This document shows positions 5,264 through 63,574 of a stretch of DNA of 64,000 bases, in pieces (position 1 is the first letter of the stretch; each line of letters opens with the position of its first letter). The translations under genes were made by a program, and so were the position numbers. The stretch spans positions 18,210 through 82,209 of the forward strand of contig JBHPCX010000004.1 of NCBI GenBank assembly GCA_042573485.1, in the 5' to 3' direction. The DNA is from Thermodesulfobacteriota bacterium (lineage in GTDB: Bacteria; Desulfobacterota; DSM-4660; Desulfatiglandales; HGW-15). Under the pieces are notes generated by a model. It worked only from the letters and a program-made list of their open reading frames with translations, did not search any database and was not told where the DNA came from.

Positions 5264-6457
5264 TCATTTATAAAGTAGATATTGTTCGCGCAACTCAATA
5301 AAATCTTTCCTTTCTAAAAGCCATATATCTTTTATCCTGTTTATATGCTCTCCTTTTTCAATGGCTTTTCTCAGGCCAGTGTTTCCAATTATCAAGTCGA
5401 TTGGTAATTTATCGTACACGTATTCATATGGCGGATCTTTCCATGTAAATTCATCTTGATGGATTTCCACAATAGTTCTCAAAAGAGCTATGGCTGTTTC
5501 GTATGACCTGAAAATTTTCCTGTCAAGGATATGAATCATAAACCCTTTGCAGATTTGATCATGCCATTTATTGAAGGTAGGCTTAAATGAGATTTCCCTG
5601 AGAGTGCAACCCTTCAAAAAATGAGGCGGAACTTTTCTTTTAATCAGATGTGTATCTAAAAATGGTGCCCCGAATATTTCAAAGGGCCGGCATGTCCCTC
5701 TGCCTTCAGAGATATTTGTGCCTTCCCATATGACCTGTCCGGGATAAACATATGCAGTTTCAGGTAAAGGCATATTAGGGGAAGGCACTGCCCATATCAA
5801 AGCCGTATCTTCCCATAACATTGTACGGTCCCAACCTTTCATTTTTATTATTTCAAGATCGCAACCTATGGAAAATTCCCGGTTGAATAGAAGGGCAAGT
5901 TCCCCCATAGTCATTCCATGCCGCATTGGCATACTGAATGGCCCGACAAAAGAGAACAATTCAGGAGAAAGCAGGTTCCCTTCAATAACGTCACCACCCA
6001 GCGGGTTGGGCCTGTCCAGTATGACTACCCTTTTAGAGTATTTTTTTGCAGCCTTAAGGCAATTCAGCATTGTTGAAGTAAAGGTGTAGACCCTTGTTCC
6101 AACATCCTGCATATCTATTACCAGGACATCTATCAAATCCAGCATTTCAGAAGTGGGTTCTCTGGACTCACTGTAGAGGCTGAATACAGGTATTTTCAAC
6201 TCCTTATCATAGGAATGACCTGTTTCTATCATATTGTCCTGGTCTTCTCCGGCATATCCATGCTGAGGACCATAGAGCGCTTTGAGGTTGTCAGGAAACA
6301 GGCTGTATAGGGTTTCCCTCGCGTGAGTCAGGTCTTTACTGACAGAGGCTTGATTTGAAAGGAGACCGAGCCTTTGCCCCTTTAAGATTTTATAGTATTC
6401 TGATTTAAATTCATCGAGGCCTGTTAATACGGTCATTAGTCCTGATGCCTTACCCAT
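5264..6457 (-). CDS. DUF1343 family protein (NamZ-like exo-beta-N-acetylmuramidase family)
   Basis: 397 aa with LGLLSNQASV near the N-terminus and overall DUF1343-like architecture. Lies next to a lytic transglycosylase. The family assignment is from memory of conserved blocks. Confidence 0.7.
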   Translation of the reverse strand: MGKASGLMTVLTGLDEFKSEYYKILKGQRLGLLSNQASVSKDLTHARETLYSLFPDNLKALYGPQHGYAGEDQDNMIETGHSYDKELKIPVFSLYSESREPTSEMLDLIDVLVIDMQDVGTRVYTFTSTMLNCLKAAKKYSKRVVILDRPNPLGGDVIEGNLLSPELFSFVGPFSMPMRHGMTMGELALLFNREFSIGCDLEIIKMKGWDRTMLWEDTALIWAVPSPNMPLPETAYVYPGQVIWEGTNISEGRGTCRPFEIFGAPFLDTHLIKRKVPPHFLKGCTLREISFKPTFNKWHDQICKGFMIHILDRKIFRSYETAIALLRTIVEIHQDEFTWKDPPYEYVYDKLPIDLIIGNTGLRKAIEKGEHINRIKDIWLLERKDFIELREQYLLYK

Positions 6458-6479
6458 AGAGTTTTTAACAGGTTGAGTA

Positions 6480-8309
6480 TTATCGTGGAATGATTTTAAC
6501 TTCCTGCCCGGGATAGATTGTGCTTTTGGCTGTTAAATTATTAATTTTCAGAAAATCATAGAGGTTCATACTGTGTCTTTTTGCAATCAGGTATGGAGAA
6601 TCACCGCTCCGGACTATATAACTCTGGCTTACTCCCGGTTTAGAATCAGTCGATCCCTTGGATACCGTCAGTACCTGGCCTATTTGAAGAGTTGAACTGC
6701 TCAGGCCGTTAACCGCTTTAATTGAATTAACCGTGGTACCGAATCGCTTAGCTATTTTCCATAATGAATCACCTTTTTGAACAATATATTTTGTAGGTGT
6801 TCCTGATGAATCGGCATATGTCACTGGAGTGTATTTTCCTGTTGGTATTTTCAGCTTCCAGCCGACCCTGAGATAATCCTTCTTCTTAAGGTTGTTCATA
6901 TTCATGATTGACTTGATGGAGGTTTTGTATCTAACAGCTATGACCGACAGGGATTCCCCGCTCCTCACTCTGTGAGTGACATAGGCGGGAGTGGGAGGAT
7001 TATAAACAGGGATATCATCCAGTTTCGCTGTTAGGACAGCACCCTTTCCTTTCGGAACCTTTAGTTCATATGTTGTCTTTGGTGTTACATTCTGAAATAG
7101 GGAGGGGTTCAGTTCCTTCAGTTGATCATATTTTATATCCATTGTTTTCGCCAGGGTATTCAAACTCATCATCTTCTTTACGGTAATCTTTTCATATCCC
7201 AGCTCTTTTTCCAGGGGCGGAAGTTCAAATCCGTAGGTTTCAGGGTCTTTAAGAATATGAAGTACTGCGTAGAACCTGGGGACATAACGGGCTGTTTCAT
7301 TAGGCAGTTTTTGAAAAAGGTCCCAGAAATCATCCATATAGCTGATTTTCTGAGATTTTATCGCCCGTATTACCCTTGCTTCACCGCAATTATAACCGGC
7401 TAGAGCTGTTTTCCATTCCCCAAAGATCTGGTGCAGCTCAGTTAAGTATGCAATAGCAGCTTTGGTGGATTTTTCCGGGTCCATCCTTTCATCAATCCAT
7501 GTATTCCTTTTCAGACCGTATTTATAACCTGTCGATGCAATGAATTGCCACATCCCCATCGCACTTTTATTGGAAAGGGCCTTTGTGCTATACCCGCTTT
7601 CTATTAAAGGGAGCCATGATAACTCCTCAGGAAGTCCCGCCTTCCTGAGTTCTCTTAAAATCGCAGGCCGGTATTTGCCGGATCTGGCATATACCTTCAG
7701 AAACCATTTTTTCTCTCTCCCCTTGAATGAATCAATCTCTTTCTGCACATAGCCGTTCATATCCAGGGGGATTTCCTTGTGAGTACCGTTTGCAACCGTA
7801 AAACGTGATGAGTATACCTCAACCATTCTCTTGGCAATTGTTATACGAAGGTCATCCTTTTCCTGGAGTATTTCAGGATTAGTCGAATTGTTTATCTTTA
7901 ATGTAAATGATAAGGCCTTATCAAGGCAGCCAATGGCGTTTTCAAGGTCGCCCTGTTCCCAGAACTCATTGGACGCCTGACAATATTCAAGCGCGGAGTC
8001 TATCAGTTCCTGGTCTGTAAGAGGCTCAATATTTTTTTCATTGTTTAATCCTTTTTTCTCGATCTGCTCTTCATGTAACGCGGTCTGGATTTCAGATTTT
8101 TCTTCTTCTAATGCCAATGTTTCATTATTCGCAACAGGAAGCTGTTTATCAACATAACTGGAAGGGACATCCTCGGAGTTCTCGGATGTCACAGCCTGAG
8201 CTTCAACTCTTTCAGGTGATGGAGGATTTGAATTTAAGGAAGCACAACCTATATATAGAAAAAATAAAAGTGAAAAAATAAGAACAGCCAACATCCTAAA
8301 AAAATTCAT
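6480..8309 (-). CDS. Membrane-bound lytic murein transglycosylase D-like protein (SLT domain plus three C-terminal LysM domains)
   Basis: Has a signal peptide with a lipobox-like YIGCAS. The SLT catalytic block reads LPLIESGYS...MGMWQF...AGYNCGEARV. Three LysM repeats are present (HRVRSGESLSVIAVRY, YIVQKGDSLWKIAKRF, YIVRSGDSPYLIAKRH). Confidence 0.9.
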   Translation of the reverse strand: MNFFRMLAVLIFSLLFFLYIGCASLNSNPPSPERVEAQAVTSENSEDVPSSYVDKQLPVANNETLALEEEKSEIQTALHEEQIEKKGLNNEKNIEPLTDQELIDSALEYCQASNEFWEQGDLENAIGCLDKALSFTLKINNSTNPEILQEKDDLRITIAKRMVEVYSSRFTVANGTHKEIPLDMNGYVQKEIDSFKGREKKWFLKVYARSGKYRPAILRELRKAGLPEELSWLPLIESGYSTKALSNKSAMGMWQFIASTGYKYGLKRNTWIDERMDPEKSTKAAIAYLTELHQIFGEWKTALAGYNCGEARVIRAIKSQKISYMDDFWDLFQKLPNETARYVPRFYAVLHILKDPETYGFELPPLEKELGYEKITVKKMMSLNTLAKTMDIKYDQLKELNPSLFQNVTPKTTYELKVPKGKGAVLTAKLDDIPVYNPPTPAYVTHRVRSGESLSVIAVRYKTSIKSIMNMNNLKKKDYLRVGWKLKIPTGKYTPVTYADSSGTPTKYIVQKGDSLWKIAKRFGTTVNSIKAVNGLSSSTLQIGQVLTVSKGSTDSKPGVSQSYIVRSGDSPYLIAKRHSMNLYDFLKINNLTAKSTIYPGQEVKIIPR

Positions 8310-47050: not shown

Positions 47051-48919
47051 TTAGTCGCCGAAAAGGTCCTCAACTACATTCTCCAGTCCCCCAAGGCTTT
47101 CAAGTGATTCGCGGGTTGGCCTGAGAGTTGACCTGTCCCAGTCAACAGCTTCACAGAACTGGTCTATAAGATCTTTTATGTTTATGGTTACACCTTTGAG
47201 AGGACCTTCAGTCAATGGTGGTTCACCGGTAGCCCTTTTAGTCAGGATGTCTTCTGCAGGGTCCTGGCCTGCCTTTAAATTAAAAGCATGCCTGAGGTTA
47301 AATATCCTTTTCCCTGTTTCAGACACGTCCTTTTCTGAAAAATCCCAGCCTGTTGCGGCTGCAATATATCTGGGCATGGTACCCGGCGGCATCGCAAAAC
47401 CGCTGAAGGCGCAAAGTCCGGCGCAATTCTGGAGTTCGGTCTCATAGGTCGCCTGAGCATCTCTCGAACCCCTGTTCTCAGTATTATATTTAACATCAGG
47501 AGGGGCATTCATTTCCATCATGCCTGTGCTTCCTTTGACATGACGACCGGGAGTGGGATCATACCTGTACGTCCTGGCAAAACCCGGTGCGAATCGGGGA
47601 TCATGCATTGGTAGCTCAATTCCCCTGGCATTTTGCAGATATTCAGCTCCTTTGCCAAGTTGCTTGGCCGCAGCTTCGGATCCAAGGGCAAGCACTTTGC
47701 CAAAACCTTCCTGGTCAGCTATTGCCTGGGTCATGTCAACTATGGCATCGGCATTTCCCCATGTAAGCTCAGCACCGCCGGTGTCATCCCTGGTGATTAT
47801 GCCGTTTTCAAAACATTCCATCGCCCAGGCTATAGTTGCGCCGACTGATATAGTATCTAAACCGTATTTATTACAGATATCATTGCATTTTATTACAGAT
47901 TCTGCATTGCTGTTAAGCATCATAGCTCCAAATGCCCCAATTGTTTCGTATTCCGGTCTGTCAGTATCTTCTACCGGCCATTTGCCGTCCTTTACACTGT
48001 AGTGAGCCCCACAACCCATTGGGCAGTTGGAACATGCATATTTGCCTGTATTATACTTTGAGTCATAGGACAGGGTCGCAAGTTTATCAGCTTCTTCTTT
48101 TCCCATATCTGTTTCACCTGCACCACCCCAGTTTTTAATGGGAGAGTCACCTGACATTATCATCCCGCCTGTTCCTCCGCCGGTACCAAAGTTGCTAAAA
48201 CCTTCTATCATACCAGCCATAGGTCCTTCTTTCATGGCGCCCGGTATTTCCTTGGTTATTGCTTTAAAATCATCGGGCTTGGCAACGGTAAATTTGCCTG
48301 TTCCCCGTACAGCCACAGCTTTAAGCTTTTTTGATCCCATAACCGCGCCGCAGCCGCCCCTGCCGGCCGCGCGATGCGTGTCATTTATTACACATGCCAT
48401 CAGGGAAAGCATCTCACCGGCCTGACCGATGACTGCGGCTCTCAGTTTCTTCTCTCCTGTTTCCTCTATTAAACCTTCCAGGGTTTCAACACTGTTTTTG
48501 CCCCAGAGTTTTGATGCATCTCTTATTTCAGCTTTTCCATCTTCGACATAAATATATACAGGTTTGTCAGAAGCACCCGAGACTATTACACCATCAAATC
48601 CAGCCCTTTTTAACTCCGGGCCGAAAAATCCACCTGAATTTGCATCGTTCCAGCCATTTGTAACAGGTGATTTACAGACTACTGTGTAACGCCCTCCGAA
48701 TAACGCGCCTGTTCCGTTTAACAGTCCCGGCATAAATCCGATGACATTTCCGGGCCCAAGGGGATCAGCATCCGGTTCAATCATATCATATAGTAGTTTA
48801 GCCCCTATGCCATATCCGCCGATAAATTTTTTCATGAAATCCTCGGATAATTCCTTCTCTTCCAGTTTACCTGAGGATAGGTCGACTAAAAGTAGTTTGC
48901 CTGCGTAAACACCCGCCAT
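47051..48919 (-). CDS. Aldehyde:ferredoxin oxidoreductase (tungstopterin AOR family), copy 1
   Basis: 622 aa. The N-terminal AFOR_N block is GKLLLVDLSSGKLEEKELSEDFMKKFIGGYGIGAKLLYD. The 4Fe-4S ligand motif is CSNCPMGC, with GLDTISVGATIAWAMECFE. Confidence 0.9.
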   Translation of the reverse strand: MAGVYAGKLLLVDLSSGKLEEKELSEDFMKKFIGGYGIGAKLLYDMIEPDADPLGPGNVIGFMPGLLNGTGALFGGRYTVVCKSPVTNGWNDANSGGFFGPELKRAGFDGVIVSGASDKPVYIYVEDGKAEIRDASKLWGKNSVETLEGLIEETGEKKLRAAVIGQAGEMLSLMACVINDTHRAAGRGGCGAVMGSKKLKAVAVRGTGKFTVAKPDDFKAITKEIPGAMKEGPMAGMIEGFSNFGTGGGTGGMIMSGDSPIKNWGGAGETDMGKEEADKLATLSYDSKYNTGKYACSNCPMGCGAHYSVKDGKWPVEDTDRPEYETIGAFGAMMLNSNAESVIKCNDICNKYGLDTISVGATIAWAMECFENGIITRDDTGGAELTWGNADAIVDMTQAIADQEGFGKVLALGSEAAAKQLGKGAEYLQNARGIELPMHDPRFAPGFARTYRYDPTPGRHVKGSTGMMEMNAPPDVKYNTENRGSRDAQATYETELQNCAGLCAFSGFAMPPGTMPRYIAAATGWDFSEKDVSETGKRIFNLRHAFNLKAGQDPAEDILTKRATGEPPLTEGPLKGVTINIKDLIDQFCEAVDWDRSTLRPTRESLESLGGLENVVEDLFGD

Positions 48920-49270: not shown

Positions 49271-50056
49271 ATGGATAAAAAAGATCCAAAAAATAAATAT
49301 ATTGTTCCAGCAGTAGAACAGGCTATTCGTGTGTTGTTATGTCTTGCAGGATCTAAATCCTCCCATATGAGTCTTACGGAAATCTGTGAACAGGTTGGAA
49401 TACACAAAAGCAAGGCCTTTGGCATTCTTCATACTCTTCAGCGCTTTGGTCTGGTTCAGAGCCGTGGGCGGAAGAAGGGATATTCACTGGGGACCGGTTT
49501 AATCACTCTTTCAAGAAAAGTGCTTGATGGTATAAATGTGATTGCCTTTGCAGACCCGATGCTCAGAGACCTTTCCGATAAAGTAAAGGGCACTGCTGCT
49601 CTGGGTATAATCGATGGTGATACTGTGGTTGTAGTATCTCGATATGAAAGTATCAAGAATGTTGGTGTAACAATTCGGGTTGGCAATCATGTCCCCATTT
49701 CCTATGGAGCACACGGCAAGGCAATTGCGGCCTTTATGCCTGAAGGTGATCTGGATGCCCTTCTGCAAAAAGAAAAACTTCATTTTCATGGGAAACCTGA
49801 AAATTTTGACAAAGATCGTCTTATGATGGAACTTGAACAATGCAGAAAGACAGGTTACGCAACTGATATCGGAGAAATAACTCCCGGATTGAATGCTGCT
49901 TCAGCGCCTGTTATAGATATTAATGGAAAACCCATCGGATATCTTCTTGTTATTGGTCTATTCACGCCCGAAGCCACCAGAAAGCATGGTACATTAGTCG
50001 CAGAAGCCGGAAGAGACCTTTCAAGGCAGCTCGGGGCAAATCTGGACAATCTCTAA
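49271..50056 (+). CDS. IclR-family transcriptional regulator
   Basis: The N-terminal winged HTH is VEQAIRVLLCLAGSKSSHMSLTEICEQVGIHKSKAFGILHTL, followed by a C-terminal effector-binding domain. Lies divergent from AOR1. Confidence 0.88.
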   Translation: MDKKDPKNKYIVPAVEQAIRVLLCLAGSKSSHMSLTEICEQVGIHKSKAFGILHTLQRFGLVQSRGRKKGYSLGTGLITLSRKVLDGINVIAFADPMLRDLSDKVKGTAALGIIDGDTVVVVSRYESIKNVGVTIRVGNHVPISYGAHGKAIAAFMPEGDLDALLQKEKLHFHGKPENFDKDRLMMELEQCRKTGYATDIGEITPGLNAASAPVIDINGKPIGYLLVIGLFTPEATRKHGTLVAEAGRDLSRQLGANLDNL

Positions 50057-53433: not shown

Positions 53434-53859
53434 TTAAAATTTTTCTCTGGGGATATCGGCTTCCTTCATGCTGTCAGCCATTGTCCAGAAGTATGCTTCA
53501 CCGGTGTAAAGATGAAATACCGCCAGGAGAGGATCATCAGGTTCTGTAATTCCCATACGGCTAAGGTTCAGCCTTTCAGCTATACATTTTTTCTTTACTT
53601 CTGTATCTTCCACAATCTTCATTTTGCCGTAAACTCTCATTACTTTGCTAAATTTTGGTGTGCAAAAATATACTTCAACTTTTTCATTTGCCTGGATCTG
53701 CTTATAGACAGCCTTTACTGACTGTGACTGAAACCAGAAACCTGTTTCATCAGCATACCACATTCCCATTGCCCTGACTCTTGGCTGATCGCCTTCCACA
53801 GTTGCCAGGTAACACATGTTATTTTCATTGGCGAAATCTGTATATTCTTTGAAACTCAT
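53434..53859 (-). CDS. Pyridoxamine 5'-phosphate oxidase-family (split-barrel flavin-binding) protein
   Basis: 141 aa. MCYLATVEGDQPRVRAMGMWY...KVEVYF....KVMRVYGK resembles the general PNPOx-like fold pattern. Confidence 0.65.
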   Translation of the reverse strand: MSFKEYTDFANENNMCYLATVEGDQPRVRAMGMWYADETGFWFQSQSVKAVYKQIQANEKVEVYFCTPKFSKVMRVYGKMKIVEDTEVKKKCIAERLNLSRMGITEPDDPLLAVFHLYTGEAYFWTMADSMKEADIPREKF

Positions 53860-53891
53860 TTTACCCCCTTTTATATTTCGAAATTTAAACG

Positions 53892-53911
53892 CCTGTGTTT
53901 TAAATATATTT
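53892..53911 (+). promoter_or_regulatory. 20-bp motif cctgtgttttaaatatattt, copy 1 (an identical copy is at 61651-61670)
   Basis: The 20/20 match was read directly, and both copies are on the + strand. It lies about 20 bp upstream of a candidate promoter (TTGTCA ... TGaTATAGT, 53930-53956) for the TRAP-cupin operon. Confidence 0.6.
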
Positions 53912-54048
53912 ATGTTTTCATTTTATGCCTTGTCAAGATTTTCCTGGTGATATAGTTTAACCTTACAACAAGCAAATAAGTTTTATCTGTGGCTCTCGTT
54001 ATTATTTTAATAACTATTATCTCTGCTTTCTGCTTAATGGAGTAAGTT

Positions 54049-55095
54049 ATGATCAGAAGAAAAGTCTTCTCCCATAAAGGTTTTATGCTTTCTACTTTGC
54101 TTTTCTGCCTTTTTGTCCTGAACACATCTTCAGTCCTGGCAAAAAGACCCAGAATCATCAGGCTGGTTGTCCCTGCTGCTGCCGGTGATCCACTGACATA
54201 TAAAGATGAAGAACTGGCAAGGAGATTTAATAATAGAGTGGGTGACCAGTACAAAATTCAGGTCTTTCCGGGAGAATCTCTTGCTCGTATTCCGGAATAT
54301 TTTGATGCGGTCAGAGTTGGAGCCATTGAAATGGCGGATATAGCATGGGGTATTTACGCCGGACATGATCCCAGGCTGTCTCTTATTGAAACACCATTTT
54401 TGTTTAATAATATCGAGGCAGGGACAGCTGCGGCAAAACGGCTACTCCCTCTTCATGATGAGATACTGCAGAAAAAATTTAACGCGAAAGCACTGGGGCT
54501 GATTCATTTCAGCGGAATAGAATTTTTATCCCTGAAACCGGTTAATAAACTTGAAGATCTGAAGGGCATGATGATTGGCGCGATCAGCCCAGCTATGGCA
54601 AAAATGATTCAGGAGCTTGGCGCGTCACCTGTAACCGTAATGTGGACGGATCTCTATACAAGCCTGCAAAAGGGTGTAATAGACGGGACGGCAAACGGCA
54701 CACACGGCAGTATTGAAAACGGTCTCCTGGACGTCTGTTCTGATGTCACCTATTTTTTTGGTGCCGCGGCCTGGAACGGTTATACAATTAACCTGGACCT
54801 CTGGAAAAGCATGCCTGAAAATGTCCGGAAAATTCTCCTTGAAGAAACAGAAAAGGCAGTCGACTGGATGCATAATAAACTGGCAGAGTATGAAATATCG
54901 GATATGCAGACATTTATAAAAAAAGGTAAAAATATCCATATTATTTCAAAAGAAGAACGGGAAAGGTGGGAAAAAAAGCTGATTCAATATCAGAAGAAAC
55001 AATTGTCAAGCATGGGGGAGTTCGGATTAAAGGTTAAAGAAATTGCGGATGATGTAAACAGCAAACATCCCTATAAGGTAAAGAGCATTAAATAA
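54049..55095 (+). CDS. dctP: TRAP transporter solute-binding protein DctP family
   Basis: Has a signal peptide and is followed directly by Q and M subunit genes. It is a paralog of 44363. Confidence 0.9.
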   Translation: MIRRKVFSHKGFMLSTLLFCLFVLNTSSVLAKRPRIIRLVVPAAAGDPLTYKDEELARRFNNRVGDQYKIQVFPGESLARIPEYFDAVRVGAIEMADIAWGIYAGHDPRLSLIETPFLFNNIEAGTAAAKRLLPLHDEILQKKFNAKALGLIHFSGIEFLSLKPVNKLEDLKGMMIGAISPAMAKMIQELGASPVTVMWTDLYTSLQKGVIDGTANGTHGSIENGLLDVCSDVTYFFGAAAWNGYTINLDLWKSMPENVRKILLEETEKAVDWMHNKLAEYEISDMQTFIKKGKNIHIISKEERERWEKKLIQYQKKQLSSMGEFGLKVKEIADDVNSKHPYKVKSIK

Positions 55096-55613
55096 TGTCA
55101 CACTCCTTTTTAAAAAAAGCAGACCTTATAATAGAACGCGTAAGTAATTTTTTTGCCCTTCTGAGCGGCATATTGATAGTACTTATGGCATTTACCGCTT
55201 CATATGGTGTTATAAGGCGATATTTCTTTAAAAGTCCCGAGCCCTATTCATATGAGTTGAGCACCATGTTCCTTTTGTGGACATTTGTTCTTGCCCTGGC
55301 CTATCTTGAAAAACTTGATGGGCACCTGAGGGTTGATTTTTTTGTGGTTCTGCTTCCTGAAAAAATCAGGAGATTTTTATTGAATGTGTTTGGCCCCTTG
55401 ATGGGCCTGGTTTTTTGTTCTGTTTTAACCTGGGAAGGCTGGAAGGTGGCAATGTATTCTCTTGAAATAGGCGAGAAAAGCATGTCCGTCTGGGCTGTTC
55501 CTCTTTTTCCCGTGAAGATAATTATTCCTATTGGGTATGGGTTGGTCAGTGTTGTTCTCGTATTGAAGATTATCAGGGGTTTTATTGAACTGGGAAATGA
55601 TCAATCATCCTGA
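55095..55613 (+). CDS. dctQ: TRAP transporter small permease DctQ family
   Basis: 172 aa with four TM helices. Its start abuts the dctP stop. Confidence 0.85.
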   Translation: MSHSFLKKADLIIERVSNFFALLSGILIVLMAFTASYGVIRRYFFKSPEPYSYELSTMFLLWTFVLALAYLEKLDGHLRVDFFVVLLPEKIRRFLLNVFGPLMGLVFCSVLTWEGWKVAMYSLEIGEKSMSVWAVPLFPVKIIIPIGYGLVSVVLVLKIIRGFIELGNDQSS

Positions 55614-55694
55614 ACTGATTCCTGTGAAATAATACCTGAGTTCATCTGGCTGGATAGACCGGTATTTGAGTGAAGTTCTGTTTTCGGAGGTTTA

Positions 55695-56996
55695 GTGGAT
55701 TATAACACCGCGTCCATATTATGCGCCGGCTTAATGTTCTTTCTACTCCTGCTGGGTGTGCCTATAGCCTATTCACTGGGATTCAGCTCAATAGTAGTGG
55801 GATATTTTGCCTTTGGAAGCTTTGCTCTCCAGAAGGCCGGCTGGACCACATTTCAGCTGCTTTATAATCTTACATGGACGCCTCTCCCCCTCTTTACACT
55901 CATGTCCTACCTTATTGCCGAGACAAAGATGGGCGAACACCTTTTCCGAACAGCAAGAAACTGGATGTCACGTCTGCCGGGCGGACTGTTTGTAGCAGGT
56001 ATCCTCGGGGAGGCAGGAATGGCCGCCGCCCTTGGCGCGAGCGGTCCGACAATTATAGCTGTTGGAAATGTCGCAGTCCCTGAATTTAAGAGATATTCAT
56101 ATAATAAACCCCTTGGCCTGGGCGCTTTGACCTGCGGTGGAGTCCTTGGCCCTTTGATACCTCCCAGTGCTACGATGATCATTTTTGCAATCCTGGCCAA
56201 TGTTCCCCTTGGCCGCCTGTTTATCGCCGGGGTGATCCCCGGGATACTGCTGGCCGTGATGCTGTCTCTCGTTCCCATAATAATGTGCGCGAGGAATCCC
56301 GAACTCGGCAGGGCAGCGGGGAAAATAAGCTGGGGTGAAAGAATCTCTTCACTCAAACTTATCTGGCCCATTGTCCTTGTAATGTTCGGCATACTGGGGT
56401 CAATATATTTTGGTATAGCTACTCCTACTGAGGCGGGTGGCGTCGGGTGTTTTATCGTACTTGTTATAGCTGTGCTTTTTTTTAATTTAAGACTAAAAGG
56501 TCTTCACAGGGCAATGGTTAAAACCGCGGTACTCAATGCCACAATTATGATTATACTTGTGGGGTCATCTTTTTTTACATATGTTTTTGGAAGTTCATCA
56601 ATCGCACAGAAACTGTCTGTATTCATAGCATCAATGAATTTGCCTCCATTGGCTGTAGTTGTGGCAATAATGATTTTTCTGTTGTTCCTGGGGTGCTTTA
56701 TTGATGGAATAACCATAATGATGCTTACGGTACCTATTTTTATACCGATAATTACCGAGCTTGGCTTTGATCCATTGTGGTTTGGAATATTGTTTGTCGT
56801 AAATATGGAAATTGCCCTGATTACACCTCCAATGGGGATCAATTTTTTTCTTGTCAGGAATAGTTTTAATATTTCGAGTATTGACTTGATAAAAGGTATA
56901 TGGCCTTTTTTAATAGTCCTTGTACTGTTTCTTGCCTTAACGGTTGCATTTCCTCAACTGAGTCTCTGGCTGCCGGGATTGATGATTGGAAAGTAG
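55695..56996 (+). CDS. dctM: TRAP transporter large permease DctM family
   Basis: 433 aa and highly hydrophobic (about 12 TM). Blocks such as GGVLGPLIPPSATMIIFA and NMEIALITPPMGINFF are typical of DctM. Uses a GTG start. Confidence 0.9.
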   Translation: MDYNTASILCAGLMFFLLLLGVPIAYSLGFSSIVVGYFAFGSFALQKAGWTTFQLLYNLTWTPLPLFTLMSYLIAETKMGEHLFRTARNWMSRLPGGLFVAGILGEAGMAAALGASGPTIIAVGNVAVPEFKRYSYNKPLGLGALTCGGVLGPLIPPSATMIIFAILANVPLGRLFIAGVIPGILLAVMLSLVPIIMCARNPELGRAAGKISWGERISSLKLIWPIVLVMFGILGSIYFGIATPTEAGGVGCFIVLVIAVLFFNLRLKGLHRAMVKTAVLNATIMIILVGSSFFTYVFGSSSIAQKLSVFIASMNLPPLAVVVAIMIFLLFLGCFIDGITIMMLTVPIFIPIITELGFDPLWFGILFVVNMEIALITPPMGINFFLVRNSFNISSIDLIKGIWPFLIVLVLFLALTVAFPQLSLWLPGLMIGK

Positions 56997-57051: not shown

Positions 57052-57498
57052 ATGAGTAAAGTGAAATATGATAAATTTATTGTCCAGGGCATAACCCCTG
57101 AAATGAAGAAGATGTCCTATCCGGGAAAACCTCAGGACATCCCTCCTGAAAACGCGAAAAGAATAGCCTGGATGGATGATCATGTTGTAGAGGGATCATT
57201 TTATACAGAGGCTGTCTGGATATGGAAGGGTGATGAAGGGTCTGTGGAAAAGCCCCACATCCATGATTTCGATGAAGTAATCACCTTCTTTGGTTCTGAT
57301 TTTGAAAATCCCGATGAACTGAACGGGGAAATTGAATTCTGGTATGAAGATGAAAAGCATATTTTTACCAAAAGCGTTATGCTCTTTATCCCGAAGGGGC
57401 TGAAACACTGTCCTCTTATCATCAGGAGGGTGGACAGGCCCATTTTCCATTACACCGCGGGAACCGGAAGAAGCCATGTCCAGGATATAGCAGGTTGA
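57052..57498 (+). CDS. Uncharacterised cupin-like protein, single module (paralog A, HCP subtype)
   Basis: Cupin motif 1 is PHIHDFDEVITFFG and motif 2 is IPKGLKHCP. Shares the AVWIWKG strand and the RVDRPIFHY tail with paralogs B and E. Confidence 0.8.
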   Translation: MSKVKYDKFIVQGITPEMKKMSYPGKPQDIPPENAKRIAWMDDHVVEGSFYTEAVWIWKGDEGSVEKPHIHDFDEVITFFGSDFENPDELNGEIEFWYEDEKHIFTKSVMLFIPKGLKHCPLIIRRVDRPIFHYTAGTGRSHVQDIAG

Positions 57499-57501
57499 AA
57501 A

Positions 57502-57975
57502 ATGTCTGAATCAAAATTTGCTAAAAATATAGTAACCGAAGATTTAATGCCGCCTTTTCCCGAACCGGTTTTAAAAATGCTGGATAAACAGGAGAAGGAG
57601 GGTAAATATCTGGACAGGACATTAATGTTCGGCATTAATGATTCAATTGTTAAAGGGTCCTTTTTTTCAGGTTGTGAGTGGCTCTGGGAATTGAAGGACG
57701 GGAAACCCTTCCAGATTGAAGCAGCCCACTCCCATGATTTTGATGAGGTTATTGGTTTGATAGGGTCCCGGAGAGAAAACCCCAGGGAACTTGGAGGGGA
57801 AGTGGAATTCTGGATTGAGGATGAGAAACATATCCTAACAAAGAGCTGCCTGATGTATATCCCGAAAGGTACCATGCACTGTCCCCTTATTATCAACAGG
57901 ATTGACAGCCCGATTTTTCTATACGAGGCAGGGAATGACACTTTCTACAAAAGAAATATATCAGAACAGGAATAA
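57502..57975 (+). CDS. Uncharacterised cupin-like protein, single module (paralog B, HCP subtype)
   Basis: Blocks are AHSHDFDEVIGLIG, NPRELGGEVEFWIEDEKHILTKS, IPKGTMHCP and RIDSPIFLY. Starts 4 nt after paralog A. Confidence 0.8.
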   Translation: MSESKFAKNIVTEDLMPPFPEPVLKMLDKQEKEGKYLDRTLMFGINDSIVKGSFFSGCEWLWELKDGKPFQIEAAHSHDFDEVIGLIGSRRENPRELGGEVEFWIEDEKHILTKSCLMYIPKGTMHCPLIINRIDSPIFLYEAGNDTFYKRNISEQE

Positions 57976-57984
57976 AGGGGAGTC

Positions 57985-58890
57985 ATGAATATGATTGAAC
58001 AGGATGTTTCAAGTTATTTGATTGACAGGCCAATTAAAAGGGACCTGAAGGGCAGGAACCATGGACAGCTTTTAACATATGCCAGTGACTCCCAGATTCC
58101 CGGTCTTCAGTACTATACTCAGATCCGCTGGATAACAGGAATGCCTGAATCGATTCCTGGAGACAGGGCGTTAGTATGTGACAGTGATAAGGTGGTTTTA
58201 TTCTGGGGCAATGACTATAAAGATCCGGAGAACCTTGGCGCGGACATTGAATTTCAGCTTGATGGAACCGTATTGCAATTTAACAGCTCAAGCTCGATCT
58301 TTGTACCAGCTGGTGTAAGTCATGGTCCTGCGATCTGGAGAAACCATGAAACTCCTCATGTGGAGATGACAATACTCATTAACAGGGGTAACCTTAAGGG
58401 TGTAACCTCAACTGATAAAGTATCTGAGTTGAGACATGTATCTGACCCCGGGAAATATATTGTCCGAAAACCTGCATACGAGGTTGTGGCTCCTACCCCC
58501 ACGAAAAACAGGATGCATCCTTCAATGACCTTTATGAGTAATAATCTTGTTCCCGATTCGAATACCTATCTCGAATTCAGCTGGATATGGGGTATGCCTG
58601 ATCCTGATCCGCATATTATGGAACATGTACATGAAGACAGTAACGAGCTTGTGTTTCATATAGGGGCCAATCCTGATGACCCTGAAGAACTGGGAGCGGA
58701 AATAGAAATATTTCTTGACGGCAAACCTCTTATGATCAAAAAGACTTCCGCCCTTTATGCACCTAAAAAGATAAGTCATGGACCTCTTAAATGGAAGAAC
58801 TACACAAAACCCCATATTGAGATGGCCATTATTTTTGATGCCGGTGTTCTCGCCCAGTCAGATCCTGGCGGGCACCAGAAGAATCTTTAA
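57985..58890 (+). CDS. Uncharacterised two-module (bicupin-like) protein (paralog C, HGP subtype)
   Basis: The N-module has a degenerate site (LVCDSDKVVLFWG ... VPAGVSHGP). The C-module is intact (EHVHEDSNELVFHIG ... APKKISHGP). Both have the ...W-I-x-G-M-P strand. Confidence 0.8.
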   Translation: MNMIEQDVSSYLIDRPIKRDLKGRNHGQLLTYASDSQIPGLQYYTQIRWITGMPESIPGDRALVCDSDKVVLFWGNDYKDPENLGADIEFQLDGTVLQFNSSSSIFVPAGVSHGPAIWRNHETPHVEMTILINRGNLKGVTSTDKVSELRHVSDPGKYIVRKPAYEVVAPTPTKNRMHPSMTFMSNNLVPDSNTYLEFSWIWGMPDPDPHIMEHVHEDSNELVFHIGANPDDPEELGAEIEIFLDGKPLMIKKTSALYAPKKISHGPLKWKNYTKPHIEMAIIFDAGVLAQSDPGGHQKNL

Positions 58891-58917
58891 TGCAGCCCGT
58901 TCCTTAAGGAAAGAAAA

Positions 58918-59826
58918 ATGAATCAAACAAACTATGAAAAGTATATGGTAAGGAGCCCTCTCAGGGAAATTGGTAAAGATGTCAAAGGACGAAGTGCTCC
59001 CGCAATGACTTACATGAGCAATGACCTTGTTGAAGGTTGTAACAAGTATATCGATATAAGCTGGATATATGGAATACCGGAGCCCAATCCCCATGTCTTT
59101 GAACACGCTCATGAATATGACAAGATAGTCTTCTTTGTTGGAGGAGATCCATATAATTTAGAGAGCCTCGGCGGTGAGATAGAATATTACCTCGGCGGAC
59201 AGCCGATAAGCCTGAACACAACATCGGCTCTGTACATTAAGAAGGGTGTTAGGCATGGTCCGGTGACATGGAAGGACTTTCCAAGGCCCCATCTGGAGAT
59301 TTCTATTATTCTTGGACCTGAAAAGAATAAAGCAGGCTGGTCAGCTGAAGAAGTCACCGGTCAAAAACAGCCTGAAAAATCGGATGATGTGGATTATGAA
59401 AAGTATGTTGTAAGAAAACCTGCCATTCTTCAGGGAACCGATGTAACAGAGGCGATGAAAAGTCCCGCCCGGATATATATGAGCAGTGATCTTGTTCCGG
59501 AAAGCAGTGTGTATGTGGATTTCGGCTGGATACCAGGTATGCCCGGACAAAATCCGCCCATACCTGATCACTCCCATGATTATGAAGAGGTAGTATTGCT
59601 TGTTGGAAATGATCCTGAGAATCCTGAAATACTCGGGGCTGAAATCGAGTTCTGCATAGATGATCAGCCCCTGACATTTGATACAACCACGGCAATATAT
59701 GCCCCAAGGTCTCTCAAGCACGGTCCCCTTACATGGAAGAAATTCGAAAGGCCCCATTTGCTGATGCCAATAGTAATCGGAACAGGATCTCTGGCTGAAG
59801 CAGCGCCGGCAGGGTATAAGGAATAA
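58918..59826 (+). CDS. Uncharacterised two-module (bicupin-like) protein (paralog D, HGP subtype)
   Basis: The N-module reads EHAHEYDKIVFFVG ... IKKGVRHGP (Glu position replaced by Lys). The C-module reads DHSHDYEEVVLLVG ... APRSLKHGP. Each half opens with YEKY[MV]VR[SK]P. Confidence 0.8.
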   Translation: MNQTNYEKYMVRSPLREIGKDVKGRSAPAMTYMSNDLVEGCNKYIDISWIYGIPEPNPHVFEHAHEYDKIVFFVGGDPYNLESLGGEIEYYLGGQPISLNTTSALYIKKGVRHGPVTWKDFPRPHLEISIILGPEKNKAGWSAEEVTGQKQPEKSDDVDYEKYVVRKPAILQGTDVTEAMKSPARIYMSSDLVPESSVYVDFGWIPGMPGQNPPIPDHSHDYEEVVLLVGNDPENPEILGAEIEFCIDDQPLTFDTTTAIYAPRSLKHGPLTWKKFERPHLLMPIVIGTGSLAEAAPAGYKE

Positions 59827-59952
59827 TAAAAGCGGTTTATCCGTCGACACCAAAAGGATAAGGCGGGTTAAAAAATTTAAAAAATGGCTAGTTGTAGAAT
59901 ATAATACGGTGTCAGAACTTTTTCATAATCATATCTGATCCCCTTTTTCCCA

Positions 59953-60030
59953 GTGTTTTGATTTTTTAAAGATTAACAGCTCTACCCGGTATCAAGAAAT
60001 TAAATCCATAATCTTTTAAAATCAAAACAC
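59953..60030. repeat. Imperfect 21-22-bp inverted repeat gtgttttgattttttaaagatt / aatcttttaaaatcaaaacac, 35 bp apart, in the spacer before the fifth cupin gene
   Basis: Read directly. The outer 13 bp are perfect, followed by a 1-nt length difference in the T/A run. The GTGTTTT core also begins the 20-bp motif at 53892 and 61651. Confidence 0.7.
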
Positions 60031-60126
60031 GCGGTTTATTCAGGAGGCTATCTGCAGATATAATTATGAAAAAATCTGACAACTCCTTAAAAAAAATAAA
60101 CGCTTTTATTAATTTGGAGAAAATAA

Positions 60127-60567
60127 ATGGGAAAAATGGACAGCAGGTATTTTGCGACAAAGCCCAGGAATAACATACCTTCTACTCCATGGGACCCTGT
60201 TTTTAAACCTGATGAAGCAACACGTATGATGTATCTTGATAAGACCATCCTTGAAGGGGCTTTTTATCTGGAATGCGCCTGGTTCTGGCCGGGAGAATGG
60301 CCAAAGGGTAAAAACTGGAGTGAACATGGTGTAAAGTCTCATGTACATGATTATGACGAAGTAATAGCATTTTATGGCACTAATCCCGAAGATCCTGAAG
60401 ATCTTTGCGGTGAAGTAGAATTGTGGATAGGCGGAGAACAGAATATAGCGGATAAAAGTTTTGTGGCCTTTATCCCAGCAGGAATTGAACACTGTCCGCT
60501 AAACATCCTGAGAGTGGACAGGCCGATTTTTCATTTTTCAACCGGTCCCGGGAAAAGTTATTTTTAA
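60127..60567 (+). CDS. Uncharacterised cupin-like protein, single module (paralog E, HCP subtype)
   Basis: Blocks are SHVHDYDEVIAFYG, NPEDPEDLCGEVELWIGGEQ, IPAGIEHCP and RVDRPIFHF. Confidence 0.8.
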   Translation: MGKMDSRYFATKPRNNIPSTPWDPVFKPDEATRMMYLDKTILEGAFYLECAWFWPGEWPKGKNWSEHGVKSHVHDYDEVIAFYGTNPEDPEDLCGEVELWIGGEQNIADKSFVAFIPAGIEHCPLNILRVDRPIFHFSTGPGKSYF

Positions 60568-60578
60568 AGGAGGAAGGT

Positions 60579-60890
60579 ATGATACGTGCATCTGTGTATT
60601 ACCCGTCAGGAGAAGGAAAAATTGATATGGATTATTATCTTAATACCCATATCCCTCTTGTTGAAAAATTAATGGAACCCTACGGTCTTGTGAAAGTTGA
60701 AGTTGATAAAGGTATAGGGGGCGGAAAACCAGGGGAAGCGGCACCCTTTGTTACTATAGCTCAAATGGTGTTCAATTCCATGGAAGAATTTCAAAAGGGG
60801 TCTGAAGTCCATGAAGGCGAGTTTGCCGCTGACGTGAAAAATTTTACTGATATAAAGCCGTTCTTTCAGGTCAGTGAAATAGTAAAATAG
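60579..60890 (+). CDS. EthD-family (dimeric alpha/beta-barrel, TIGR02118-like) protein
   Basis: 103 aa. MIRASVYYPSGEGKIDMDYYLNTHIPLV...APFVTIAQMVFNSMEEFQKG...DVKNFTD fits the EthD pattern. An AGGAGG RBS sits upstream. Confidence 0.7.
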   Translation: MIRASVYYPSGEGKIDMDYYLNTHIPLVEKLMEPYGLVKVEVDKGIGGGKPGEAAPFVTIAQMVFNSMEEFQKGSEVHEGEFAADVKNFTDIKPFFQVSEIVK

Positions 60891-61059
60891 TGTCCATTCA
60901 GCACGCCAGTTCGAAATGATTAATTATGTCACCTTGCTGGCCATTATGATTAAAAAGAACCTTGTTCCTTGTTAAAATACCCTTTATTATGTATATTATC
61001 GGATAATTTGAGTAGGATTTTAATGCAAAGAATCAGGTCAACCCGGATGGAGGTGGGGT

Positions 61060-61497
61060 ATGTTACTGGATGATATAGATCGAGCATTAATAAAAGAACT
61101 TGAAAAGGATGCAAGAGTTAGCAGTGATGTTTTGGCCAGGAACCTGAACATCAGCTCGACAACAATAAGGCGGAGAACCAGGAGGCTTATTCAGGAAGGC
61201 ATTATTAAGATTGTAGCTATCCCTGATCTGAAAAAACTGGGCTTTTCGGTAATCGTTGGGATACGGATGGAACTGGATCAGAAAAAGATCGACAATGTTA
61301 CCAAAGAATTGATAAAACACCCGAATGTCAGGGGTGTGTGGACAATAACAGGCAGGTATAATCTTTCTTCAATGGCGGTTTTTCGATCCACGGAGGAATT
61401 TTCAGAATTTATGCGTAATGTTGTCGGGGATCTGGATGGTTTGAAATCGGTTGAAACACACATTTATCTCGAACTTATCGGTTCTCAGGCCGAATAA
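61060..61497 (+). CDS. AsnC/Lrp-family transcriptional regulator
   Basis: The HTH is LDDIDRALIKELEKDARVSSDVLARNLNISSTTIRRRTRRLIQEGII, followed by a C-terminal RAM/ACT-like domain. Confidence 0.88.
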   Translation: MLLDDIDRALIKELEKDARVSSDVLARNLNISSTTIRRRTRRLIQEGIIKIVAIPDLKKLGFSVIVGIRMELDQKKIDNVTKELIKHPNVRGVWTITGRYNLSSMAVFRSTEEFSEFMRNVVGDLDGLKSVETHIYLELIGSQAE

Positions 61498-61650
61498 TAT
61501 ATAAGTATGTTAGGGATTATTTGCTCTTTTCATATTCTTGTTTTTTATTTAACTAACCAGACACAATCCATAAAAATTCCCCGGAGATAATAATTTGATT
61601 TTTAGTGTGCATGTCCGGGAAATATTCATTCATATTTTTTTATTAATCAA

Positions 61651-61670
61651 CCTGTGTTTTAAATATATTT
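61651..61670 (+). promoter_or_regulatory. 20-bp motif cctgtgttttaaatatattt, copy 2
   Basis: Identical to 53892-53911. It lies 42 nt upstream of the AOR2 start and overlaps the expected -35 region of a cataat -10 element at 61688-61693. Confidence 0.6.
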
Positions 61671-61711
61671 TCTAAATTATTCCTGATCATAATCTTTAAA
61701 GGAGGGGAGAT

Positions 61712-63574
61712 ATGTATAAAGGAGGATATACCGGGAAAATACTGAGAATCAATCTGTCTGATCAGTCGGTTAAAACTGAGAGTCTGCCGGAAGACCTGGC
61801 CAGGATGTTTATCGGTGGAGCGGGATTCGGTATTAAATTATTGTTTGATGAGGTCGGGAAGGGCACTGACCCCCTGGGGCCTGAAAACAAATTGATCTTC
61901 GCGTCCGGCCCATTCTCGGGCACATCGGTACCCTGCGCGAGCCGTATGGCGATCACAGGTAAATCCCCCCTTACTGGCGGGGTTGGCGTATCTCTTACAG
62001 GCGGATATTTCCCTGTTGAGTTGAAATTCGCGGGCTATGATATCATGATTATCGAAGGAAGATCTGAGGAGCCTGTGTACATATCCATCAAGGACGGGAA
62101 TGTAAAATTCAGGAGTGCCAAAAAAGTATGGGGGATGAAGACAACCGATACCCAGCAGATAATAAAAAATGAATTGAATGATCAGAACACAAGAATAGCA
62201 TGTATAGGCCCTGCCGGTGAAAATCTAAGTAAACTGGCCTGCATTATAAATGAACTGAGGGCGGCAGGCAGAAAAGGGCTGGGAGCTGTAATGGGTTCTA
62301 AGAACCTGAAGGCAATAGCTGTAAGGGGTACCGGAGAAGTAGATATCGCGTCAAAGGAAAAACTGAAAACAGCAAGAGATTTTATGGCAAAGCAAATGAA
62401 TGACAGTGAAGTCCTTTATCCACATTTTGCAAAACTCGGAACTCCCATGGTTGTCGATGCCTTGAGCGGTCTTGGAATATTCCCCGGAAAAAACTTTGAA
62501 GAAACGGGGGTATTCGTTCCCGTAGAAGAAATTGGTGTTGAGACCCAGGTTACCAGGAACATGGGCAGTGAACACTGTTACGGATGCCCGGTCGGGTGCA
62601 GCCAGCTGAAGCTTGCGAAAACAGGAGAATATTCAGGTATTATGGCTGAAGGCCCTGAATTTGAAACAATGTATTCCTTTGGCGGGACAACAGGTGTGGA
62701 TAATATTGATGCCATTATCGCGGCCGACAGGCTGTCTGACGAACTGGGGCTGGATACGATTTCAGCGGGAGCAACAATAGCCTTTGCCATGGAGCTCTTT
62801 GAAAAAGGGATCATAACCCTGGAAGATACGGGCGGAATAGATCTGAAATTCGGAAACCACAGGGTAATGGTGGATATGCTCAGGCTGATGGCCTACAGGG
62901 AAGGTTTCGGTGATGTTTTGTCAGATGGCACCAGGATCGCGGCTGAAAGAATAGGCAAAGGATCAGAAAAATATGCCATGCATGTAAAGGGTCTTGAACT
63001 GCCCGGTTATGATGTCAGGGGGGCAAAGGCCCATGGACTTAATTATGCCACATCATACACTGGTGCTGATCATAACAGGGGTTACGCGTTCCAGGAAATA
63101 TTCGGCATACCTGTACCTGAAGCAGTTGACAGGTTTGCCGCGGAAGGAAAGGGGAAACTCACTAAATGGAACCAGGATGTAAGGTCTGCCACATGTGATA
63201 CCCCTACCATGTGTGCCTTTTTACTCGATATGGCTGTACCGGGAGTTGCCACCCAGAATACGGCGAGTTTGATGGAGGCTGTTACGGGCCTTGAATTTAC
63301 ACCGGAAGAGGTTGAAAGAGTAGGAGAGAGGATAAACAACCTCGCGAGGTTATTTAACGCCCGGGAAGGCATGACAAGGGATGATGATAACCTCCCGGAA
63401 AGAATAATGACCGAACCTATAAAGGATGGTGTTTCAAAGGGAAATTTTATCAGCAAGGATGATCTGAACCTTATGCTGGATGAATATTATACTGCCAGGG
63501 GATGGGACCTCAAGACAGGTACGCCTACCAAGGAGAAACTCGAGGAACTGGGATTGGGGGATGCGGTCGAATAG
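61712..63574 (+). CDS. Aldehyde:ferredoxin oxidoreductase (tungstopterin AOR family), copy 2
   Basis: 620 aa with GKILRINLSDQSVKTESLPEDLARMFIGGAGFGIKLLFD, the cluster motif CYGCPVGC and GLDTISAGATIAFAMELFE. Confidence 0.9.
   Translation: MYKGGYTGKILRINLSDQSVKTESLPEDLARMFIGGAGFGIKLLFDEVGKGTDPLGPENKLIFASGPFSGTSVPCASRMAITGKSPLTGGVGVSLTGGYFPVELKFAGYDIMIIEGRSEEPVYISIKDGNVKFRSAKKVWGMKTTDTQQIIKNELNDQNTRIACIGPAGENLSKLACIINELRAAGRKGLGAVMGSKNLKAIAVRGTGEVDIASKEKLKTARDFMAKQMNDSEVLYPHFAKLGTPMVVDALSGLGIFPGKNFEETGVFVPVEEIGVETQVTRNMGSEHCYGCPVGCSQLKLAKTGEYSGIMAEGPEFETMYSFGGTTGVDNIDAIIAADRLSDELGLDTISAGATIAFAMELFEKGIITLEDTGGIDLKFGNHRVMVDMLRLMAYREGFGDVLSDGTRIAAERIGKGSEKYAMHVKGLELPGYDVRGAKAHGLNYATSYTGADHNRGYAFQEIFGIPVPEAVDRFAAEGKGKLTKWNQDVRSATCDTPTMCAFLLDMAVPGVATQNTASLMEAVTGLEFTPEEVERVGERINNLARLFNAREGMTRDDDNLPERIMTEPIKDGVSKGNFISKDDLNLMLDEYYTARGWDLKTGTPTKEKLEELGLGDAVE

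Follow-up and report, generated by a model that had tools for sequence, protein, structure and literature searches.

An exact 20-nucleotide repeat in two spacers of a Desulfatiglans transporter–cupin–oxidoreductase locus, possibly a recent local copy

When the same 20 nucleotides stand in front of two neighbouring transcription units, do they mark an operator through which one regulator couples the two, or have they some other origin? The question is raised by a metagenome-assembled genome of a Thermodesulfobacteriota bacterium (GenBank assembly GCA_042573485.1; 4,024,655 bp in 236 contigs, 84% complete; labelled G000 in the alignments below), of which a stretch of 64,000 nucleotides was analysed (the window; positions 18210 to 82209 of its contig). 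The sequence CCTGTGTTTTAAATATATTT is found there at 53892–53911 (copy 1) and again at 61651–61670 (copy 2), on the plus strand in both cases, identical at 20/20 positions and 7.7 kb apart. The first-pass annotation had reported this co-oriented pair, and its existence is confirmed at both coordinates.

Gene order and sequence around the two copies

The gene order at the locus begins with AOR1 (47051–48919, minus strand) and an IclR regulator (49271–50056), followed by a zinc-ribbon protein, an MFS transporter and an aldo-keto reductase with a 4Fe-4S domain, which lie between IclR and a PNPOx-like flavoprotein gene (53434–53859, minus strand; Pfam PF01243, 5.3e-15). Divergent from the PNPOx-like gene are the TRAP transporter genes dctP, dctQ and dctM (54049–56996, plus strand, with dctP itself at 54049–55095; Pfam DctP, 2e-42, and synteny), and then come five cupin genes (57052–60567), EthD (60579–60890), a regulator gene of the Lrp/AsnC (FFRP) family (61060–61497, plus strand; Pfam HTH_24, HTH_AsnC-type and AsnC_trans_reg), AOR2 of the aldehyde:ferredoxin oxidoreductase family (61712–63574, plus strand; AFOR_N and AFOR_C found on an ortholog, 84–89% amino acid identity to orthologs) and, after it, a ThiS/MoaD-like gene.

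The order from PNPOx and dctPQM through the cupins, EthD and AsnC to AOR2 is kept in all 10 other Desulfatiglans species genomes, wholly or as far as their contigs reach, and AsnC is 84–87% identical in them. A JGI contig (Ga0255982_101035, here L083) carries the whole locus with five cupins; cupins 2 and 5 were found only in the window's own sub-lineage. In two relatives (G003 and L073) AOR2 and MoaD are missing after asnC, so that AOR2–MoaD behaves as a separately exchangeable module. L083 has an iron-containing alcohol dehydrogenase gene (5589–6803) between dctM and the first cupin gene, and a gene of the same kind lies 3′ of MoaD in L068, a contig of a conspecific assembly (GCA_042565105.1), a hint that the cupin array goes together with aldehyde/alcohol chemistry.

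Genome-wide, the 20-mer matches only these two sites at 0, 1 or 2 mismatches, and at 3 mismatches two further, unrelated sites appear in the whole assembly. The dozens of copies that would mark a dispersed repeat, a possibility raised in the first-pass annotation together with the proposal of this search, are thus not what the genome holds. The identity is sharply edged: downstream the flanks have no similarity, and upstream there is a weak in-register similarity of 12/22 (53870–53891 against 61629–61650, plus strand; recorded as repeat family D8, 42 nt, 76% identity). A run of 20/20 beside 12/22 and then nothing argues against an old duplication. Two-copy local exact repeats of at least 18 nt with unrelated flanks number only 11 in the genome.

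Both copies lie, as had been claimed, in non-coding DNA, co-oriented and close to promoters, at distances slightly different from those first given. Copy 1 is in the divergent spacer between PNPOx and dctP, 32 nt from the PNPOx start codon (33 bp had been reported), and its last 4 nt overlap a conserved ATTTATG box. Copy 2 is in the AsnC–AOR2 spacer, 41 nt 5′ of the AOR2 ATG (42 bp had been reported) and 153 nt past the AsnC stop, not immediately downstream of that gene.

The conserved element of the PNPOx–dctP spacer is the promoter region beside copy 1. ATTTATG and TTGTCAA, about 14 nt apart, are invariant in seven Desulfatiglans genomes and are also present in L083 and in a further metagenomic lineage, L080. 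On the minus strand, TTGACA (reverse complement of 53930–53935), a spacing of 17 nt and ATAAAT (reverse complement of 53908–53913) form a good candidate sigma-70 promoter for PNPOx (53908–53935), from which we infer the start site. On the plus strand, TTGTCA, 15 nt and TATAGT with a TG extension form a putative dctP promoter (53930–53956), and the divergent PNPOx promoter seems to use the same −35 region. Relative to these predicted start sites, copy 1 would extend from about −10 to +10 for PNPOx and from about −71 to −52 for dctP.

The window's short spacer architecture is common to two metagenomic lineages, L080 (PNPOx 91% identical) and L083. In the three-way alignment of G000, L080 and L083 the block ATTTATG(t/a)TTTCATTTTAT(g/a)CCTTGTCAAGATTTTCC...TGATATAGTTTAAC is about 95% conserved, and the TRAP promoter proposed at first pass (TTGTCA...TGaTATAGT) holds up, being conserved in both lineages. 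The columns of the 20-mer are the variable part of this alignment, beside the conserved block; at the position of copy 1 L080 reads CATAAATTTTAATTAAATTT (13/20) and L083 has an indel. A scan of the species genomes for the conserved promoter block found none. More distant relatives (G002, G004, G008, G003, L081 and L082) have a separate, downstream dctP promoter, GTTGACA, 17 nt and TA(C/G)AAA, followed by a conserved palindrome, ACCGAAC(A/G)(C/T)TCGGT (ACCGAACGTTCGGT or a near variant); this segment is absent from the window, L080 and L083. The palindrome is a better operator candidate than the 20-mer.

The 20-mer itself contains TATATT, for which TTTAAA and TTAATC are weak −35 candidates in register, and a promoter scan called neither; by eye, it does not match the sigma-54 or IHF consensus. 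A second block of similarity, TTCCTGnTnATA (17/27, with an offset of about 20 nt), had been considered for an activator-site geometry at roughly −61 and −40, and was dropped as evidence because 17/27 is expected by chance at that length in A+T-rich DNA. Directly 3′ of copy 1 is a 12-codon open reading frame, MFSFYALSRFSW (53912–53950), which stays open in L080 and L083; the substitutions read in it are all non-synonymous, and because it also runs into the promoter block it was rejected as probably non-coding.

The AsnC–AOR2 spacer that holds copy 2 is 214 nt long (61498–61711, plus strand), and its length varies among relatives: 22–27 nt in L068, L069, L077, G009 and G001, about 120 nt with a terminator hairpin in the G002 group, and 180–214 nt in G006, G010 and the window. 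The window's own spacer contains no predicted terminator, which makes read-through from asnC likely; asnC and aor2 lie 22–27 nt apart in several lineages (L068 6233–6254, for example), which implies an asnC–aor2–moaD operon. The 127-nt spacer of L083 aligns with both ends of the window's spacer and lacks 86 nt between them, including most of copy 2, which lies at the 3′ edge of that stretch; by our own reading of the sequences, L083 agrees with the 20-mer there at about 11/20 positions. Just upstream, window positions 61579–61650 hold two similar tandem units, CCCCGGAGATAATAATTTGATTTTT and TCCGGGAAATATTCATTCATATTTTTTT, both resembling a single CCCCGGGAAATATTC unit of G006 and G010; the arrangement suggests a local tandem duplication.

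Operator or coincidence

The two spacers might share an operator at which a single local regulator acts (AsnC at 61060 or IclR at 49271), and by which TRAP import and the cupins would be co-regulated with AOR2 and MoaD; the first-pass annotation had put this forward, with AsnC as the obvious candidate. The idea is reasonable in kind. A regulator gene of the FFRP family lies between the two sites and is conserved in all genomes of the genus, and both sites are promoter-proximal and co-oriented. The closest solved structures to AsnC are archaeal-type FFRPs (7fby, PH0140, FL11 (PH1519) and LrpA), of which 7fby bears from its depositor only the name "Transcriptional regulatory protein"; among the solved homologs whose function is described PH0140/DARP is the closest, and it binds the promoter of a transporter gene next to its own (PMC13628549). 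The 3′ half of the 20-mer, AAATATATTT, is a 10-bp palindrome.

Operators of Lrp/AsnC regulators are dyad-symmetric and A+T-rich, about 13–15 bp long and usually present in several copies, and A+T-rich dyads are typical of the family; here only AAATATATTT is palindromic, the 5′ half, CCTGTGTTTT, has no dyad partner, and each spacer has a single box. Binding by a transcription factor does not demand 20/20 identity between its sites.

Comparison with the relatives weighs further against an operator. The AsnC recognition helix, SSTTIRRRTRRL, is identical in 11/11 Desulfatiglans genomes, but the 20-mer was not found at up to 5 mismatches in the locus of the 10 other genomes, and it is absent from the L080 and L083 spacers and from the AsnC–AOR2 spacer of L068. 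In no relative did spacer 1 and spacer 2 share a motif above the level of shuffled sequences. The claim that one regulator, AsnC first of all, couples both units is therefore not supported, since relatives have the same helix with neither the 20-mer nor any shared motif. Nor does the 20-mer define a regulon, as had been suggested: at up to 2 mismatches the genome has no further site, whether in front of functionally linked genes or elsewhere, and its sub-motifs occur in the genome at background rates only. Near-matches (at most 3 mismatches, in 61 family genomes) do exceed a reversed-pattern control within the genus; since the 20 sites inspected are mostly inside long open reading frames or in unrelated spacers, the excess is put down to composition and not to a motif.

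AsnC may have sites of another kind. The promoter of asnC (about 60940–60990 in the window, and the EthD–asnC spacers of relatives) has a conserved box, AATCTTAAT(T/C)CTTGCTAAA, followed by a TATTAT-like −10. Palindromes abut the asnC −35, TTAAGAT-AAAA-ATCTTAA in G004 and G006 and AATAAGAATCTTATT in L083, and are degenerate in the window; in some genomes the box comes with a TAAGA-n-TCTTA palindrome, and these are candidate autoregulatory boxes. The box is unrelated to the 20-mer and was found in neither the PNPOx–dctP nor the AsnC–AOR2 spacer. The literature yielded nothing usable on AOR regulation in Desulfatiglans or on TunR. Nothing found links the AsnC protein to the 20-mer, and we regard an operator shared by the two units as quite unlikely.

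The first-pass annotation had also pointed out that the GTGTTTT core of the 20-mer recurs in both arms of an inverted repeat in front of the fifth cupin gene. The inverted repeat is indeed present in the cup4–cup5 spacer (59953–60030, plus strand), with arms that begin GTGTTTT and a predicted fold of −19.8 kcal/mol (z −3.7), and the spacer that carries it is matched at 100% identity by L068 and lacking in L083. The link to the 20-mer is weak: the window has 17 occurrences of GTGTTTT where 9.9 ± 3.2 are expected, a count reached by 3/100 shuffles. Between the left arm and the first 10 nt of the 20-mer, 9/10 positions agree, for which we estimate a probability of about 6% over the spacers of the locus, and this likeness is suggestive at most.

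Pure coincidence, by which two A+T-rich spacers would simply share 20 bases, draws on the composition of the 20-mer (80% A+T), on the absence of conservation anywhere, and on the exact copies that exist in unrelated sequences. Among public genome contigs (596 billion bases) there is one, in an unrelated organism and context: L034 2939–2958, from a Magnetobacteriaceae genome assembled from a metagenome, where the reverse complement forms the leader and ribosome-binding site of an EAL-domain gene. By our estimate one such match is about the chance expectation for that collection. Public metagenome contigs hold 13 more, in unrelated contexts (low-GC repeat contigs). Moreover, when the window is shuffled so as to keep the composition of its 100-nt blocks, 1.7% of the shuffles have an exact 20-mer repeat somewhere, and very many windows were scanned, so some chance cases must surface.

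For this particular pair the figures are much smaller. The best ungapped match between spacer 1 and spacer 2 scores 20, against a shuffle maximum of 12. A 20-mer shared by any two spacers within 20 kb is expected 2.6e-4 times per window and 0.009 times per genome (zero-order, composition-based), and our own estimate from base composition for these two spacers is of the order of 1e-6 to 1e-5. These figures bear out the earlier judgement that chance is unlikely, for a window taken singly; across a scan of very many windows chance is not negligible. The relatives add a separate difficulty, as their homologous positions are only about 50–65% identical, and about 7–9 independent substitutions would have to converge. 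Altogether, coincidence seems to us a distinctly unlikely account.

Mosaic boundary, assembly and minor readings

The contig L068 ends in dctQ, and its comparison with the window covers dctQ to MoaD. Over most of this range the two are 99–100% identical, with patches of 94–97% at about 58000–58600, 59000–59800 and 60200–61000. The AsnC–AOR2 spacer of L068 is 22 nt long, which means that copy 2 and the entire 214-nt spacer are absent. Copy 2 falls within a divergent tract of about 0.8 kb (61212–62021, against L068 5946–6560) in which identity to L068 is 76–91% between flanks of 99–100%; it begins and ends abruptly, and most of the differences fall at third codon positions. Every relative shows about 79% identity to the window over the 3′ half of asnC, whereas L068 reaches 88% with L069 and L077, its next relatives; the window is thus the odd one out, which indicates that it acquired foreign sequence, with copy 2 inside it. 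Judged by these patterns of identity, the locus is a recombination mosaic.

Such a tract could also arise in assembly, if 61212–62021 had been threaded in from a co-occurring related population, and the two copies would then not belong to one genome. The abrupt fall in identity to the conspecific, from 100% to 76–91% at 61212 with recovery at 62021, has that appearance, and a metagenome-derived assembly in 236 contigs, 84% complete, is fragmented enough to allow it. Against this, the flanks of copy 1 are confirmed by the homologous spacers of L080 and L083, which are independent assemblies, and those of copy 2 by L083 and, on our own reading, by G006; with both sides of each copy found in independent assemblies, the repeat is not a threading artefact. 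The differences in the tract, mostly at third positions of an intact gene, are such as real homologous exchange would produce, and the 94–97% patches elsewhere point to recombination as common at the locus. We hold a chimeric origin of 61212–62021 to be very unlikely.

An element acting at the RNA level has also been considered, either a small-RNA target or a PNPOx leader, antisense to copy 1, that would pair with asnC–aor2 intercistronic RNA carrying copy 2 in the sense orientation. Copy 2 is probably transcribed, given the lack of a predicted terminator and the 22–27 nt spacing in relatives, and about 10 nt of the predicted PNPOx transcript would be complementary to it. However, the predicted folds of the two contexts are no better than those of shuffled sequence (z +0.56, −0.07 and +1.0), an Rfam search returned nothing better than E = 0.79, the genome has no complementary third copy, and conservation is lacking; an RNA element is hardly credible on this evidence.

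Mobile DNA was rejected in two forms. A dispersed repeat, MITE or REP element is at odds with two copies only, no related sequences at up to 2 mismatches, unrelated flanks and no terminal inverted repeats. An attachment-site core or target-site duplication is at odds with the bracketed 7.7 kb, which is ancestral, syntenic across the genus and free of any recombinase; L068, without copy 2, retains this segment as far as its contig covers it (from dctQ onward). Dispersed short intergenic families, for example GGAACCTGAAACCTGGAA-type and CAATTAACAATTAACAAT-type units (contigs C55, C170, C164, C97 and C29), dominate the exact repeats of at least 18 nt in this genome.

Origin of the repeat and its likeness to known systems

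The reading that we tentatively favour is that the 20-mer pair is a recent, lineage-private copy of a short tract, of uncertain function, and not an ancestral operator. The homologous positions of relatives are about 50–65% identical, and the window has 20/20 within unrelated flanks, which suggests to us that the identity arose recently by short-patch copying and was not maintained by long-term selection; as the 20-mer is private to one assembled genome and absent in relatives, it is better understood as a recent local copy than as a conserved regulatory switch. Most likely, short-patch gene conversion or templated repair copied the tract from one spacer to the other, in a locus visibly mosaic from recombination. 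The mechanism is putative, and a conversion patch of 20 nt lying 7.7 kb from its template would be unusual.

Whether the copy has been kept for a purpose is a separate matter, as promoter-proximal, co-oriented copies fit a selected function and neutrality equally. If functional, the 20-mer would be a shared protein-binding site or an A+T-rich upstream element, and would form an additional link between PNPOx/dctP and aor2 expression in this strain. A stronger version holds that a 20-bp segment of the PNPOx–dctP spacer was copied into the newly expanded asnC–aor2 spacer and now serves as a shared site that ties aor2 to control of the transporter, while the sister strain would run aor2 by read-through from asnC; we consider this unlikely.

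If the repeat is functional, it would offer a small, datable case in which strains of an uncultured sulfate reducer that degrades aromatics differ by rewired regulation. For now its main value is negative, in that the 20-mer is unfit to define a regulon or to assign a binding motif to AsnC. The useful by-products are a conserved divergent promoter block, the mosaic at the asnC–aor2 boundary, and better operator candidates in the relatives.

Several known systems resemble parts of this arrangement. REP- and MITE-like dispersed intergenic repeats, abundant in this genome, are likewise short exact repeats in non-coding DNA. Divergent back-to-back sigma-70 promoters that share one palindromic −35 offer a closer parallel for the PNPOx–dctP spacer: CTTGTCAAG would supply both strands, as TTGACA (minus) and TTGTCA (plus), it is flanked on either side by conserved −10-like hexamers, and the −10 and start region of the minus strand overlap with copy 1. 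This likeness belongs to the conserved context, whereas the columns of the 20-mer vary.

Duplicated operators of a local Lrp/AsnC (feast/famine) regulator, for example PH0140/DARP of P. horikoshii acting on the promoter of the neighbouring PH0137 transporter gene, are a further parallel, in that the locus likewise has an FFRP gene inside a cluster of transporter and enzyme genes and a short A+T-rich box, here with a 10-bp palindrome, in the promoter regions of the neighbouring units. The difference is that here no dyad spans the whole 20 bp, orthologous loci do not conserve the box although the recognition helix is the same in them, and a conspecific strain lacks one copy. Mosaic loci shaped by homologous recombination and gene conversion form the last comparison. 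The putative ectopic patch of 20 nt, between spacers 7.7 kb apart, would be shorter than typical conversion tracts; in other respects the likeness extends to the sharply bounded, mostly synonymous divergent tracts in a locus otherwise 99–100% identical, and to a spacer of variable length at the boundary of a module, AOR2–MoaD, that is present in some relatives and absent in others.
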